Source: a virus
Taxonomy: Duplodnaviria > Heunggongvirae > Uroviricota > Caudoviricetes
Reading direction: 5' to 3' (one strand)
Length of the DNA stretch: 6,952 nucleotides
Virus record (IMG/VR): IMGVR_UViG_3300000289_000189
Part shown: piece by piece, positions 567-6,952 of the stretch
How positions within the stretch are numbered: the stretch's first letter is position 1
How the letters are laid out: the number at the start of each line of letters is the position of its first letter
The notes under the pieces: generated by a model
Told to the model about the DNA's origin: nothing
What the model saw: the letters and a program-made list of their open reading frames with translations, nothing else
Databases searched by the model: none
Made by a program: the position numbers and the translations under genes

Positions 567-1677
567 ATGAAGCCGTCCGTTATCCTCTACAAAGCCTTAC
601 CTGATGATTTACTGCAACGCCTGCAAGAGCATTTCACCGTTCACCAGGTGGCAAACCTCAGCCCACAAACCGTCGAACAAAATGCAGCAATTTTTGCCGA
701 AGCTGAAGGTTTACTGGGTTCAAACGAGAATGTTGATGCCGCATTGCTGGAAAAAATGCCGAAACTGCGTGCCACATCAACGATCTCCGTCGGCTATGAC
801 AATTTTGATGTCGATGCGCTTACCGCCCGAAAAATTCTGCTGATGCACACGCCAACCGTATTAACAGAAACCGTCGCCGATACGCTGATGGCGCTGGTGT
901 TGTCTACCGCTCGTCGGGTTGTGGAGGTAGCAGAACGGGTAAAAGCAGGCGAATGGACCGCGAGCATAGGCCCGGACTGGTACGGCACTGACGTTCACCA
1001 TAAAACACTGGGCATTGTCGGGATGGGACGGATCGGTATGGCGCTGGCACAACGTGCGCACTTTGGCTTCAACATGCCCATCCTCTATAACGCGCGCCGC
1101 CACCATAAAGAAGCAGAAGAACGCTTCAACGCCCGCTACTGCGATTTGGATACTCTNNNNNNNNNNNNNNNNNNNNNNNNNNNNNNNNNNNNNNNNNNNN
1201 NNNNNNNNNNNNNNNNNNNNNNNNNNNNNNNNNNNNNNNNNNNNNNNNNNNNNNNNNNNNNNNNNNNNNNNNNACGCATCATCTGTTTGGCGCAGAACAA
1301 TTCGCCAAAATGAAATCCTCCGCCATTTTCATTAATGCCGGACGTGGCCCGGTGGTTGATGAAAATGCACTGATTGCTGCATTGCAGAAAGGCGAAATTC
1401 ACGCCGCCGGGCTGGATGTCTTCGAACAAGAGCCACTGTCCGTAGATTCGCCGTTGCTNNNNNNNNNNNNNNNNNNNNNNNNNNNNNNNNNNNNNNNNNN
1501 NNNNNNNNNNNNNNNNNNNNNNNNNNNNNNNNNNCCAACGTCGTCGCAGTACCGCATATTGGATCTGCCACCCATGAGACGCGTTATGGCATGGCCGCCT
1601 GTGCCGTGGATAATTTGATTGATGCGTTACAAGGAAAGGTTGAGAAGAACTGTGTGAATCCGCACGTCGCGGACTAA
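567..1677 (+). CDS. ghrB: Glyoxylate/hydroxypyruvate reductase B (D-isomer-specific 2-hydroxyacid dehydrogenase); interrupted by two N-runs (1157-1273, 1459-1534) with frame changes
   Basis: Start ATG 567 ([14 protein letters not shown]...) preceded by GGAG at 557-560; the ORF-track start at 555 lacks a Shine-Dalgarno. Translation contains the Rossmann NAD(P)-binding motif [16 protein letters not shown]. Three visible segments are in frames 0, 2 and 1 (567-1156, 1274-1458, 1535-1677) and together read as GhrB; stop TAA at 1675-1677 (...CVNPHVAD*). Confidence 0.88.
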
Positions 1678-1779
1678 GCCGCGACTGCGTGAAGTAAAGC
1701 CCGATAATCGCTCGGGCTTTTACTCTTTATTGGGTTGCAGTAACTGCTGTAGTCCAGGCCTGATTAAACGCCTGATGTT
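1668..1779. repeat. Copy 1 of a 112-bp direct duplication (ghrB 3' end, intergenic terminator, yiaF 3' end), ending at the 10-N run
   Basis: 1668-1779 aligns base for base with 1790-1901 (offset 122) except A/G at 1692 vs 1814 and T/A at 1745 vs 1867. Confidence 0.9.
1696..1731. terminator. Bidirectional rho-independent terminator between convergent ghrB and yiaF (in copy 1 of the duplication)
   Basis: Stem AAAGCCCGA (1696-1704) / TCGGGCTTT (1712-1720), 7-nt loop, with a T-rich tail (1721-1731) on the + strand; the A-run inside the 5' arm gives a U-run for the minus-strand transcript. Confidence 0.6.
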
Positions 1780-1789
1780 NNNNNNNNNN
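1780..1789. other. 10-N gap flanked directly by the duplicated 112-bp segment (probable scaffold gap)
   Basis: Exactly ten Ns; the left flank ends with ...CCTGATGTT and the right flank restarts with CGCGGACTAAG..., i.e. the same 112 bp on both sides. Confidence 0.6.
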
Positions 1790-1901
1790 CGCGGACTAAG
1801 CCGCGACTGCGTGGAGTAAAGCCCGATAATCGCTCGGGCTTTTACTCTTTATTGGGTTGCAGTAACAGCTGTAGTCCAGGCCTGATTAAACGCCTGATGT
1901 T
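1790..1901. repeat. Copy 2 of the 112-bp direct duplication, continuous with the full-length yiaF
   Basis: See copy 1. Copy 2 continues rightward into an uninterrupted yiaF reading frame on the minus strand. Confidence 0.9.
1818..1853. terminator. Bidirectional rho-independent terminator downstream of yiaF (copy 2 of the duplicated hairpin)
   Basis: Same hairpin as 1696-1731 shifted by 122 nt; the yiaF stop (TAA on minus, 1849-1851) sits at the edge of the U-rich tail. Confidence 0.6.
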
Positions 1902-2559
1902 GTGCCGGTAATGGCGCAATCAGTTTGTTATATTCACTTGCCTGCTGTGAAGTCGGGAACTGGATGCCATTTGCGACAAAGCTCACCTGAGTACCTTGCT
2001 GAGCAATGTAGTCTCCAACCATCACCAGTTGTTGCGTGAAAGTTTGTGCCGCCGGAATCAACGGTTGCAATGCATCAGCTGGCGTCGTTACCACTTTGGT
2101 GAATGCCTGATCAAAGACCGGTTTCAAATCATCGGTCTGTTTTAGCGCAGAGTGCGCAGCATCGGCCTGCAACTTCGCATTTTGCAGTTGTTGCGCCAGC
2201 ACACCCAGCGAACCGTTCATTTCACGCAGCGGACCGCTTTGCGTAACGTAATCCTGCGGTACGCGAATTGCGTTAACGCTGTCTACGACCGGGCGCAGAC
2301 CGGAATCCATCGCCTGATTCACCTGCTGAGAATAACCATACAGAATCGCGTAATCAGAGACAAAAGGACCAAACTGTTTTTTCTGATCGGCAGTCAGGGT
2401 TGGTAGACGTTCACCGCTACGCATCACTGTATTCTGCAGGAAGTCGATAAACGCTTTACGCTGATCGCCTTCTTTATCAAAACACCCACTCAGGCTAACT
2501 ACCATTAATAACGCCGCAAGAGGCGCAAACCAGCGAGAGCAGGACTTTCCTGTCGCCAT
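1849..2559 (-). CDS. yiaF: Predicted lipoprotein YiaF (uncharacterised); 236 aa
   Basis: Minus-strand ORF 1849..2679. Preferred start is the internal ATG at 2557-2559 (MATGKSCSRWFAPLAALLMVVSLSGCFDKEG...), preceded by AGGAG (complement of 2567-2571) with a 7-nt spacer. The N-terminus has a signal peptide with lipobox LSGC. Translation matches E. coli YiaF as I recall it. Confidence 0.85.
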   Translation of the reverse strand: MATGKSCSRWFAPLAALLMVVSLSGCFDKEGDQRKAFIDFLQNTVMRSGERLPTLTADQKKQFGPFVSDYAILYGYSQQVNQAMDSGLRPVVDSVNAIRVPQDYVTQSGPLREMNGSLGVLAQQLQNAKLQADAAHSALKQTDDLKPVFDQAFTKVVTTPADALQPLIPAAQTFTQQLVMVGDYIAQQGTQVSFVANGIQFPTSQQASEYNKLIAPLPAQHQAFNQAWTTAVTATQ

Positions 2560-3061
2560 TTTCTTACTCCTTTCACCCAAAAAAAGCGCACAACGACACA
2601 CGCGTGTCTGACGTGACAAGGATAGTCCAGGACAGGCTTGCAGGATACCCTTTCTACGTAATCTTCCTGGTAAAATCATGGAGAAAATGAAACAAGGTTA
2701 ATTTGTTGTTTCATTGTTAAAAAATGATATTGCCGTTGCCTTTTTTGTAGCCAGAGATTTACGCCTTCGCAGAACGTTAGATTTTCGAAATCTTTACAAA
2801 CCGGGAGTGGTAAGAGATATATCGGCATTTATCAGATCGTTAGGTGGCTATAAGTCANNNNNNNNNNNNNNNNNNNNNNNNNNNNNNNNNNNNNNNNNNN
2901 NNNNNNNNNNNNNNNNNNNNNNNNNNNNNNNNNNNNNNNNNNNNNNNNNNNNNNNNNNNNNNNNNNNNNNNNNNNNNNNNNNNNNNNNNNNNNNNNNNNN
3001 NNNNNNNNNNNNNNNNNNNNNNNNNNTTCACGATCCCGCAGTGTGATTTGAGGAGTTTTCA

Positions 3062-3429
3062 ATGGAATATAAAGATCCAATGCATGAGCTGTTGAGCAGC
3101 CTGGAACAGATTGTTTTTAAAGATGAAACGCAGAAAATTACCCTGACGCACAGAACAACGTCCTGTACCGAAATTGAGCAGNNNNNNNNNNNNNNNNNNN
3201 NNNNNNNNNNNNNNNNNNNNNNNNNNNNNNNNNNNNNNNNNNNNNNNNNNNNNNNNNNNNNNNAAAAGGGACAGGGTTAAAAATCGATGATTTCGCCCGG
3301 GTTTTGGGCGTATCAGTCGCCATGGTAAAGGAATGGGAATCCAGACGCGTGAAGCCTTCAAGTGCCGAACTAAAATTGATGCGTTTGATTCAAGCCAACC
3401 CGGCATTAAGTAAGCAGTTGATGGAATAG
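3062..3429 (+). CDS. yiaG: HTH-type (Cro/C1, XRE-like) transcriptional regulator YiaG; interrupted by N-run 3182-3263 with a frame change
   Basis: ATG 3062 preceded by GAGGAG (3050-3055). N-terminal segment MEYKDPMHELLSSLEQIVFKDETQKITLTHRTTSCTEIEQ (frame 2). C-terminal segment from 3265, KGTGLKIDDFARVLGVSVAMVKEWESRRVKPSSAELKLMRLIQANPALSKQLME*, in frame 1 with helix-turn-helix character; stop TAG at 3427-3429. Confidence 0.82.
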
Positions 3430-3559
3430 ACTTTTATCCACTTTATTGCTGTTTACGGTCNNNNNNNNNNNNNNNNNNNNNNNNNNNNNNNNNNNNNNNN
3501 NNNNNNNNNNNNNNNNNNNNNNNNNNNNNNNNNNNNNNNNNNNNNNNNNNNNNNNNNNN

Positions 3560-3779: not shown

Positions 3780-3992
3780 ATGTCCGGTAAAATGACTGGT
3801 ATCGTAAAATGGTTCAACGCTGACAAAGGCTTCGGCTTCATCACTCCTGACGATGGCTCTAAAGACGTGTTCGTACACTTCTCTGCTATCCAGAACGATG
3901 GTTACAAATCTCTGGACGAAGGTCAGAAAGTGTCCTTCACCATCGAAAGCGGCGCTAAAGGCCCGGCAGCTGGTAACGTAACCAGCCTGTAA
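3780..3992 (+). CDS. cspA: Major cold-shock protein CspA (70 aa)
   Basis: Translation [70 protein letters not shown] matches E. coli CspA as I recall it; cold-shock domain RNP1/RNP2 motifs KGFGFI and VFVHF; stop TAA 3990-3992. Confidence 0.97.
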
Positions 3993-4057: not shown

Positions 4058-4140
4058 CAGGAAATAAATAATCGATCGCGTAATAAAATCTAGTATTATT
4101 TTTGTGAAAAATAAATTTGGGTGCAATGAGAATGCGCAAC

Positions 4141-4171
4141 GCCGTAAGAAAGGCGGGAATAACTTCCCGCC
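4141..4171 (-). terminator. Putative 3' terminator hairpin of the hokA transcript
   Basis: Perfect 8-bp stem GGCGGGAA (4152-4159) / TTCCCGCC (4164-4171) with loop TAAC; on the minus strand it is followed by TTTCTT (complement of 4146-4151). It lies 3' of hokA, but the hokA stop codon is hidden in N-run 4187-4289, so the spacing is unknown. Confidence 0.4.
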
Positions 4172-4289
4172 GAAGACTCTAACTCTNNNNNNNNNNNNNN
4201 NNNNNNNNNNNNNNNNNNNNNNNNNNNNNNNNNNNNNNNNNNNNNNNNNNNNNNNNNNNNNNNNNNNNNNNNNNNNNNNNNNNNNNNNN

Positions 4290-4419
4290 AAAACGCCGCC
4301 AGCTCATAACTCTCCTGTTTAATATGCAATTCACACAGTGAATCTCTTATCATCCAGGTGAAAAATAAAAGCGTGAAACAAATCACTATTAAAGAAAGTA
4401 ATCTATATTTCTGCGGCAT
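4290..4419 (-). CDS. hokA: Hok-family type I toxin HokA, visible N-terminal 43 codons (C-terminus and stop hidden in N-run 4187-4289)
   Basis: Minus-strand translation from ATG (complement of 4417-4419): MPQKYRLLSLIVICFTLLFFTWMIRDSLCELHIKQESYELAAF..., a Hok/Gef-family small membrane toxin with a hydrophobic transmembrane stretch; G-rich SD-like run just upstream; genomic context between cspA and glyS matches the known hokA locus. Confidence 0.8.
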
Positions 4420-4479
4420 TCCCAGCCCCCTGTGTTGATTTCCAACGAGTAAGAGGCTAACCTTATGGTGTTCAGGCAT
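4420..4479 (-). other. mok-like upstream reading frame, in frame with hokA (MPEHHKVSLLLVGNQHRGLG-)
   Basis: ATG at complement of 4477-4479 with SD GAGG about 7 nt upstream (complement of 4487-4490); no stop before the hokA ATG in the same frame. In hok/sok systems hok translation is coupled to an upstream mok frame. Confidence 0.4.
4435..4463 (+). promoter_or_regulatory. Candidate promoter for the Sok-like antisense RNA (sokA): -35 TTGATT (4435-4440), 17-nt spacer, -10 TAACCT (4458-4463)
   Basis: Hexamers read directly on the + strand, antisense to the mok/hokA leader, firing away from hokA across the mok translation-initiation region, which is where Sok promoters sit in hok/sok loci. The -10 is weak and there is no experimental support. 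Confidence 0.3.
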
Positions 4480-4540
4480 AGGGTAGCCTCACTTTGATTT
4501 ATAGTCAGGTGGGGCTTTTCTCTGTCTGCCTTTCGGTGAA
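4470..4540 (+). ncRNA. sokA: Putative SokA antisense RNA (extent approximate)
   Basis: Inferred from the candidate promoter and hok/sok architecture; the region is complementary to the mok SD and start. No clean intrinsic terminator was identified, so the 3' end is a guess. Confidence 0.25.
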
Positions 4541-4776
4541 TACCTGAGACAAACAGTCTCAAGCACCCGTGGCTATTCTAGCNNNNNNNNNNNNNNNNNN
4601 NNNNNNNNNNNNNNNNNNNNNNNNNNNNNNNNNNNNNNNNNNNNNNNNNNNNNNNNNNNNNNNNNNNNNTTTCTTCTCCTTGATATAATCCTAAAAAAAC
4701 CTCATAAAATTAATATATGAGATAATCTTTATTCAGCAGAAGATTATTAAAGGTTGCTGTATTATTTAGCGATAAT

Positions 4777-4819: not shown

Positions 4820-6952
4820 TTACTGCAACAGCGAAATATCCGCAACGCGCAGGAACAGTTCGCGCAGTTTCTCCAGCATGGTCAGACGGTTGAGACGNNN
4901 NNNNNNNNNNNNNNNNNNNNNNNNNNNNNNNNNNNNNNNNNNNNNNNNNNNNNNNNNNNNNNNNNNNNNNGTCATCAACCATGACCATCACTTTATCGAA
5001 GAAAGCATCGACCGGTTCACGCAGCTCTGCCAGTTCGACCAGCGCATCCTGGTAACGACCTTCCGCAAAGTACGGCTCCAGCTTGTCACGTAGCACCACC
5101 ACCTGCATCGCCAGTTTAATTTCTTCCGGCTCTTTCAGAGTAGAGGCATTCACGCGATCGCTCAGCACTTCGTCAGATTTCGCCAGGATGTTAGATACAC
5201 GTTTGTTCGCCGCCGCCAGTGCTGCAGCTGCTTCCAGGGTACGGAAGTGCGATACCGCTTTCATACGGGCATCGAAATCAGCCGGACGAGTCGGACGACG
5301 CGCCAGTACCGCCTGGATGGTGTCAACGGTATAACCTTCGTCCTGATACCAGGCGCGGAAGCGACCGAGCATAAAGTCGATAACATCATCAACTACGTTG
5401 GCATTAGTCAGCTTATCGCCATACAGACGCACCGCTTCTTCGGTCAGCGTTTGCAGATCAAGGTTGAGGTTCTTCTCAACGATAATTCGCAGCACGCCAA
5501 GTGCGGCACGACGCAGCGCAAACGGGTCTTTGTCGCCTTTCGGATGCTGGCCGATACCGAAGATACCCGCCAGAGTATCCATCTTGTCAGCAATCGCCAG
5601 CGCACAGGCTACCGGGTTAGACGGCAGGTCATCACCGGCAAAGCGCGGCTGATACTGCTCATTCAGCGCCACCGCGACATCTTCCGCTTCGCCATCGTGA
5701 CGCGCATAGTGCATCCCCATAACGCCCTGGGTGTCGGTGAACTCGAAGACCATGTTGGTCATCAGGTCGCACTTAGACAGCAGACCCGCACGGGTAGCGT
5801 GGTTAACGTCAGCGCCAATCTGTTCAGCAATCCAGCCAGCCAGCGCCTGGATGCGGTCAGTTTTGTCGCGCAGCGTCCCCAACTGTTGCTGGAACAACAC
5901 GGTTTGCAGGCGCGGCAGGTTATCTTCAAGACGTTTTTTACGGTCGGTGTTGAAGAAGAACTCGGCATCCGCCAGACGCGGACGAACGACTTTCTCGTTA
6001 CCAGAGATAATTTGCTGCGGATCTTTCGATTCGATGTTGGCAACGAAGATAAAGTTCGGCAGCAGTTTGCCGTCGTTCGCATACACCGGGAAGTATTTCT
6101 GGTCACCTTTCATGGTGTAAACCAGCGCTTCAGCCGGCACCGCGAGGAATTTCTCTTCGAATTTTGCGGTCAGAACGACCGGCCACTCCACCAGCGAAGC
6201 CACTTCTTCCAGCAGGCTTTCGCTTAAGTCAGCGTTACCGCCAATCTTACGCGCTGCTTCTTCGGCATCGGCTTTAATCTTCGCCTTACGTTCTTCGTAA
6301 TCGGCGATGACTTTCCCACGCTCACGCAGAANNNNNNNNNNNNNNNNNNNNNNNNNNNNNNNNNNNNNNNNNNNNNNNNNNNNNNNNNNNNNNNNNNNNN
6401 NNNNNNNNNNNNNNNNNNNNNNNNNNNNNNNNNNNNNNNNNNNNNNNNNNNNNNNNNNNNNNNNNNNNNNNNNNNNNNNNNNNNNNNNNNNNNNNTTGCC
6501 GGAATGACTTTGTCGCCCAGCAGCAGGGTCACGGTGTGCACCGGACGCACGAAGTGCACGTCGCTTGCGCCCCAACGCATCAGTTTCGGGATCGGCAGTT
6601 TCGCCAGAGAAGTCGCAACCATATTCGGCAGCAGTGCTTCGGTGCTTTCGCCCTTCACATGGGCGCGATACAGCAGCCATTCGCCTTTATCGGTAGTCAG
6701 ACGCTCAGCCTGGTCAACGGTAATACCGCAACCACGCGCCCAACCTTCTGCCGCTTTGCTCGGTTTGCCTTCAGCGTCGAACGCCTGGGCAATCGCCGGG
6801 CCGCGTTTTTCGATTTCACGATCCGGTTGCGCTTCCGCCAGGTTAGCTACTTTCAGCGCCAGACGACGCGGAGCAGCAAACCATTGAACGGTGCCGTGTG
6901 CGAGGCCAGCGTTATCCAGCTCCGCAGTAAAATTCGCAGCAAAGGACTCAGC
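4820..6952 (-). CDS. glyS: Glycine--tRNA ligase beta subunit, 3' ~80% (N-terminus beyond window end); interrupted by N-runs 4898-4970 and 6332-6495 with frame changes
   Basis: Minus-strand translation: C-terminal ...[25 protein letters not shown] with stop TAA at complement of 4820-4822. Long middle segment (4971-6331) [31 protein letters not shown]...[10 protein letters not shown]. Upper segment (6496-6952) [152 protein letters not shown]. All match E. coli GlyS as I recall it. Confidence 0.93.

Follow-up and report, generated by a model that had tools for sequence, protein, structure and literature searches.

An apparent 112-nt duplication at the ghrB/yiaF junction is very probably an assembly artefact built from two E. 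coli strains

Assemblies of metagenomes and mixed strains contain breaks at strain variants and chimeric consensus contigs. In heterozygous vertebrate assemblies, heterotype false duplication leaves allelic versions of a locus as neighbours on a scaffold, with a gap between them and haplotype-specific k-mers in each (Ko et al. 2022, Genome Biol 23:205; PMC9516828, which cites earlier work by Kelley and Salzberg). Further marks of such duplications are a read depth of each copy that is about halved or otherwise lowered, and read pairs that are discordant or compressed across the two copies. Negative gaps were described with PBJelly as places where adjacent contigs should overlap according to the distance estimate, yet their sequences do not (English et al. 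2012, PLoS One 7:e47768; PMC3504050).

In the window (the whole stretch of 6952 nt analysed here), a 112-nt segment at the junction of ghrB and yiaF stands on either side of a run of ten N. Judging from sequence comparison, we consider it very probable that this 112-nt 'duplication' is an assembly artefact, in which one ghrB/yiaF junction was assembled from two E. coli strains and written out with a placeholder gap. We see in the window a heterotype false duplication of a bacterial, mixed-strain kind, with a negative gap at the junction. As in the vertebrate examples, one scaffold retains both allelic versions as neighbours, each marked by haplotype-specific k-mers and parted from the other by a gap, and in better, high-quality assemblies of the species the locus occurs once. 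However, heterotype false duplication was described for the two parental haplotypes of diploid vertebrates, whereas the window combines two co-present bacterial strains, and the window case is tiny (112 nt), creating no false gene and only a 17-codon yiaF fragment. Compared to the negative gaps of PBJelly, the contigs are likewise expected to overlap and stand unmerged with a token gap between them, but the contig ends in the window do overlap, with 98.2% identity (110/112), though without an exact word of at least 53 nt; two strain-specific SNPs would explain why they stayed unmerged despite this overlap. The window contigs also resemble those of mixed-strain assemblies in that they switch haplotypes and fragment where strains differ or coverage is thin, although most gaps in the window are not at strain differences.

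The repeat and its locus

We mapped the window pieces onto a complete annotated chromosome, NZ_AP022036.1 (L001), and found them colinear with the yiaD-ghrB-yiaF-yiaG-cspA-hokA-glyS region. The features around the junction are:

567..1677, plus strand: ghrB (glyoxylate/hydroxypyruvate reductase B), mapping to the annotated ghrB at L001 1067-2041, with two oversized N runs inside (1157-1273 and 1459-1534)
1678-1726: ghrB/yiaF intergenic spacer, 49 nt, from the L001 mapping
1727..1779, minus strand: apparently spurious yiaF 3' fragment cut by the N run, consisting of the last 53 nt (stop, 16 codons and 2 nt; about 17 codons)
1790..1799, plus strand: apparently spurious second ghrB 3' end of 10 nt (CGCGGACTAA), from self-comparison of the window and the L001 mapping
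1849..2559, minus strand: complete yiaF (DUF3053 protein, 236 aa), with a translation equal to L001 yiaF WP_000190517.1 from the annotated start onward

The true ghrB 3' end sits in the first copy of the repeat, where the stop TAA at 1675-1677 makes 1668-1677 the final 10 nt of the gene.

Self-comparison of the window gives two direct copies, 1668-1779 and 1790-1901, of 112 nt each and identical at 110 of 112 positions (98.2%). They differ at 1692 (A) versus 1814 (G), an intergenic site, and at 1745 (T) versus 1867 (A), a synonymous site in yiaF (Ala231, GCA/GCT). The ten N at 1780-1789 are the sole spacer between the copies, the end of copy 1 and the start of copy 2 lying flush with the run, and the repeat extends no further: the base left of copy 1 faces N, as does the GTGCC... 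to the right of copy 2. The runner-up direct repeat in the window is 31 nt long with 77% identity, and a 112-nt repeat of 98% identity within 7 kb is far beyond chance. The original prediction had reported a near-identical 112-bp duplication with these two mismatches, the second of them synonymous, abutting the 10-N run on both sides. Its coordinates were reproduced exactly, and the content it proposed (10 nt of ghrB end, the 49-bp spacer and ~17 yiaF codons) agrees with the mapping to the annotated complete genome.

Two further genes of the locus drew our attention. The protein WP_000014594.1 (L001 3806-4018; L002 7275-7487; window about 3780-3992) is labelled cspE/'CspE' in NZ_AP022036.1 and cspA/'CspA' in NZ_CP033092.2 (L002); two names for one protein at the same locus are a RefSeq annotation inconsistency. 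Downstream of cspA, the hokA type I toxin locus (window about 4096-4480; L001 4209-4358) differs between genomes: L001 has it annotated as an incomplete pseudogene, ATCC 11775 has it intact, and in L006 (2538-3907) and strain SFE8 an IS3-family element replaces or interrupts it. The N run at 4187-4289 divides the locus in the window.

The spacer contains a hairpin in each copy:

1696..1720, plus strand: terminator-like hairpin AAAGCCCGATAATCGCTCGGGCTTT in copy 1, from a terminator consensus scan
1818..1842, plus strand: the same terminator-like hairpin in copy 2, from the same scan

On the plus strand, both copies of the hairpin have a 9-bp stem with 5/9 GC pairs, a 7-nt loop and a T-rich tail, which is the arrangement of an intrinsic (rho-independent) terminator, where a U-run comes after a GC-rich hairpin on the transcribed strand. 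The copy 1 spacer folds at -18.5 and -20.5 kcal/mol on the plus and minus strands, respectively (z = -2.9 and -4.3), and the copy 2 spacer at -21.7 and -22.4 kcal/mol; across both copies, z ranges from -2.9 to -3.6 on the plus strand and is about -4.2 on the minus strand. Like the intrinsic terminators of convergent genes, this element places a GC-rich stem and a T-rich tail between ghrB and yiaF and folds both ways. However, the U-tract on the yiaF side is broken (TTTACTTC), and despite the stable predicted fold of the opposite strand, the consensus scan returned no minus-strand site. The earlier description of a 'bidirectional terminator' thus has partial backing: both strands fold, while the scan flags the plus strand (ghrB side) only. 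The terminator is single-copy in reality and its apparent doubling is an artefact. As a separate observation, the natural A/G polymorphism at 1692/1814 lies at the foot of the hairpin, where G adds a base pair at the stem base; with the G allele at 1814, the predicted fold energy of the spacer is 2-3 kcal/mol lower on both strands.

On L001, the piece 1535-1779 maps to 1899-2143 and the piece 1790-2857 to 2032-3099, so that the two contigs overlap by 112 nt. The same 112-nt overlap is seen on OGUF01001352.1 (L003), an unrelated, gap-free metagenome contig that carries the locus once. We then surveyed 5,426 complete E. coli genomes, using the left contig 1535-1779, the right contig 1790-2857 and copy 2 as queries. 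The junction segment was matched in 5,423 of the 5,426 genomes at a median of one place each, and is single-copy in about 5,420 of them; one complete genome has two places for it, and three have none. The real locus is one copy of ghrB, a 49-nt spacer with a terminator hairpin, and a convergent yiaF, an arrangement ordinary in essentially every E. coli.

Geometry alone would permit a genuine tandem duplication of 112 bp, comprising the 3' ends of ghrB and yiaF and the terminator between them, in which the assembler broke at the repeat boundary and the copies later diverged at two sites; breakage at a repeat that exceeds k likewise leaves copies flush with a gap. We find this highly improbable. 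The novel junction that such a duplication creates is occupied by N in the window, and a 46-nt probe for it (...GCCTGATGTT|CGCGGACTAA...) matched 0 of the 5,426 complete E. coli genomes, including the genome with two places for the junction segment. The single-copy state of the locus in about 5,420 genomes also speaks against a duplication.

A side observation concerns the left edge of the left contig. Four Logan contigs of 6-21 kb (L004-L007), independent and from different runs, start within 2 nt of the contig start at 1535-1537 (L001 1899-1901) in ghrB, and the collection has the same edge-truncated GhrB fragment of 46 aa in 94 blocks. A ghrB repeat does not account for this recurrent start, as 5,422 genomes contain the flanking 91 nt once. 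The start at ...GCTCTCAATGG|CCAACG... may reflect chance in a very large collection, or else a recurrent break or coverage dropout.

Two haplotypes in one scaffold

We took L001 (NZ_AP022036.1) as haplotype A and the type strain ATCC 11775 (NZ_CP033092.2) as haplotype B, and classified all sites at which they differ. The pieces at the junction are:

1535..1779, plus strand: left contig piece, pure haplotype A (3/3 informative sites A), 100% identical to L001 1899-2143 and to many complete genomes
1668..1779, no strand assigned: copy 1, at the end of the left contig; 1692 A and 1745 T are haplotype A, with a 100% match to L001-type genomes
1790..1901, no strand assigned: copy 2, at the start of the right contig; 1814 G and 1867 A are haplotype B, with a 100% match to many genomes including ATCC 11775
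1790..2857, plus strand: right contig piece, an A/B chimera with the complete yiaF and the yiaF-yiaG spacer; informative sites B B B a a a a a a a B B B B

At 113 called A/B-informative sites, the window carries the A allele at 104 and the B allele at 9. These nine are the only mismatches to L001, and among 5,972 called positions there were 0 bases that match neither the A nor the B reference. Seven of the mismatches lie in the right contig and all seven are ATCC 11775 alleles, with five intergenic, two synonymous and none nonsynonymous, as expected for standing variation. The contig 4290-4582 reads B B a a a a a a a a a, and every piece besides this one and 1790-2857 is pure A.

A versus B alleles at two positions of the overlap are impossible for a single-copy locus in one genome, and the sample therefore held at least two E. 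coli haplotypes. This bears on the two causes that had been offered for the mismatches between the copies. The mixed template holds, with both alleles at both sites being natural and coming from two E. coli haplotypes, whereas read errors do not. It might be argued that a single strain left an overlap unmerged because two sequencing errors in thin contig ends blocked the merge. Errors are common at contig ends of low coverage, and the coverage of the window, whose roughly 6.2 kb are in 11 pieces, is plainly low. Against this, both supposed error bases are natural alleles found together in ATCC 11775-type genomes, the variants keep clear of nonsynonymous positions, and 9/9 deviations from A are B alleles with 0 private bases in 5,972, for which the chance under random error is about 1e-20. 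We therefore rejected sequencing error as the source of the mismatches, and the single-strain account that depends on it appears very improbable. The two SNPs that separate the copies are haplotype-specific, distinguishing A from B genomes, rather than random.

The B alleles form three tracts, 1790-2050, 2730-2857 and 4290-4313, and 3/3 touch a contig end. The median distance to the nearest contig end is 56 nt for B sites and 205 nt for A sites (one-sided Mann-Whitney p = 0.0035, which treats linked sites as independent and is indicative only). This is the pattern expected from sparse minority-strain reads extending majority-strain contigs. Both ends of the contig 1790-2857 match B-type genomes perfectly and its middle is one mismatch from A-type genomes, while its A/B mosaic has no counterpart in 5,423 complete genomes, in which the best match is 99.4%. 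The exact 101-nt pattern across the B-to-a switch had 1 match in metagenome_contigs (OGUF01001352.1, a third haplotype) and 0 in genome_contigs.

These data also allow us to weigh a single natural recombinant strain, with an A background, imported B-type tracts, and an overlap left unmerged for an unrelated reason. E. coli genomes are mosaic, the B-type tracts, at 100-340 nt, are of a size that recombination tracts can have, and OGUF01001352.1 shows that 2050 C with A-type neighbours exists in nature. Yet the two contigs carry different alleles, A in one and B in the other, at two single-copy positions, which is impossible within one genome; recombination gives no reason for all B tracts to lie at contig ends; and the mosaic is in none of the complete genomes. 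Such a strain is barely credible as the source of the window.

The haplotypes count against a genuine tandem duplication as well. The sites at which its copies would have 'diverged' are alleles of two pre-existing natural haplotypes, which mutation after duplication would not have produced, and the B-type alleles run past the repeat into the right contig, at 2050. In a variant of this idea, an A-type chromosome would have taken up B-type DNA through an unequal or illegitimate crossover at the ghrB/yiaF terminator, giving a true 112-bp tandem duplication that keeps donor and recipient alleles, with the junction hidden by the ten N; we regard this as extremely improbable.

Gap lengths as an internal calibration

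The window consists of 11 contig pieces and 10 N runs, in order of 117, 76, 10, 169, 82, 99, 103, 87, 73 and 164 nt. Nine of these, of 73-169 nt, went unmentioned in the original prediction, and none of the nine has duplicated flanks. Compared to L001, the runs are:

1157-1273: 117 N, true gap 49 nt
1459-1534: 76 N, true gap 8 nt
1780-1789: 10 N, true distance -112 nt; the only 10-nt N run, and probably a floor-length placeholder for a negative gap
2858-3026: 169 N, true gap 100 nt
3182-3263: 82 N, true gap 5 nt
3461-3559: 99 N, true gap 29 nt
4187-4289: 103 N, true gap 16 nt
4583-4669: 87 N, true gap 12 nt
4898-4970: 73 N, true gap 9 nt
6332-6495: 164 N, true gap 96 nt

For the nine long runs, N length correlates with the true gap on L001 at r = 0.983, and the excess of N over the true gap is 64-87 nt (mean 71.8, sd 6.9, mode 68). 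Because the N lengths track the true gaps with a constant excess, the scaffolder must have estimated distances with a constant bias. The region spans 6184 nt in the best complete genomes and 6952 nt in the window; the near-constant surplus in every sized gap makes the window exceed the real locus by 768 nt, and it also throws reading frames that cross a gap, such as those of ghrB and glyS, out of register. As to the source of this surplus, our guess is that the scaffolder reported gap sizes in units of k-mers (k-1 = 68).

The 10-N junction is the only one with a negative true distance (-112 nt). There, the calibration predicts an estimate of about -40, that is, an estimated distance below zero between adjacent contigs; since such a value cannot be written as N, a floor value would have been written in its place. 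A real duplication with abutting copies (distance 0) predicts 64-87 N rather than 10, and the observed run is 8.9 sd lower. This argument against a real duplication is independent of which program was used. The earlier reading of the repeat as an unmerged contig overlap is thereby supported from four sides: the 112-nt overlap on complete genomes, the single-copy locus, the absent tandem junction and the gap calibration.

Two other accounts of the N runs were considered and rejected. If all of them were strain bubbles bounded by A/B SNPs (with +68 = k-1), the gap ends should be polymorphic, which they are not, and 3/9 true gaps are without any A/B difference. The true gaps contain 11 A/B differences in 324 nt versus about 6.4 expected, a weak enrichment. 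As most gaps lie off strain differences, with three of the nine lacking any, the breaks seem to come mostly from low coverage and not from strain bubbles. Masked real sequence or reference-sized gaps do not fit either, as the runs are 64-87 nt longer than the sequence they stand for.

An unmerged overlap and what it means

Within the 112-nt overlap, the exact-match runs are 24, 52 and 34 nt, and the copies have no common k-mer at k >= 53. The lack of any common word of 53 nt or more would have kept a large-k de Bruijn-graph assembler from merging them, and an assembler of this type, with k >= 53, was probably used.

The course of events that best explains the window would be as follows. The sequenced DNA would have come from two E. 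coli strains, with haplotype A dominant and haplotype B minor, and their combined coverage would have been low. A-type reads would give a contig that ends at window position 1779, and B-type reads one that starts 112 nt further back. A coverage hole in A after 1779 and another in B before 1668 would leave dead ends that overlap in sequence and not in the graph (k >= 53), as the two SNPs, 53 nt apart, leave no exact word of at least 53 nt in common and no merge would occur. The scaffolder would order the contigs rightly, arrive at a negative distance estimate and write a minimum gap of ten N, leaving the same 112 nt on either side of the gap.

Velvet writes at least 10 N, and SPAdes an artificial gap of 10. 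Together with the internal calibration, these defaults suggest that the 10 N are the program's floor value; in the literature, we found no documented 10-N floor in a named scaffolder, and the papers retrieved use 10 N in other senses. The strain mixture itself may be biological, from a metagenome or a mixed culture, or may be due to contamination.

For the record, the correction is to collapse 1780-1901, making the window 122 nt shorter, and to take the remaining N runs as about 70 nt too long. Screens for repeats or duplications in draft scaffolds should discard near-identical repeats that lie flush with a minimum-length N run. A scaffold's own gaps can calibrate what a real abutting duplication looks like, and this check is reusable on other scaffolds. 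The repeat is without biological significance. What the scaffold represents is a consensus of at least two E. coli strains, and SNP typing, recombination analysis and phylogenetics would be misled by its chimeric contigs, 1790-2857 and 4290-4582.
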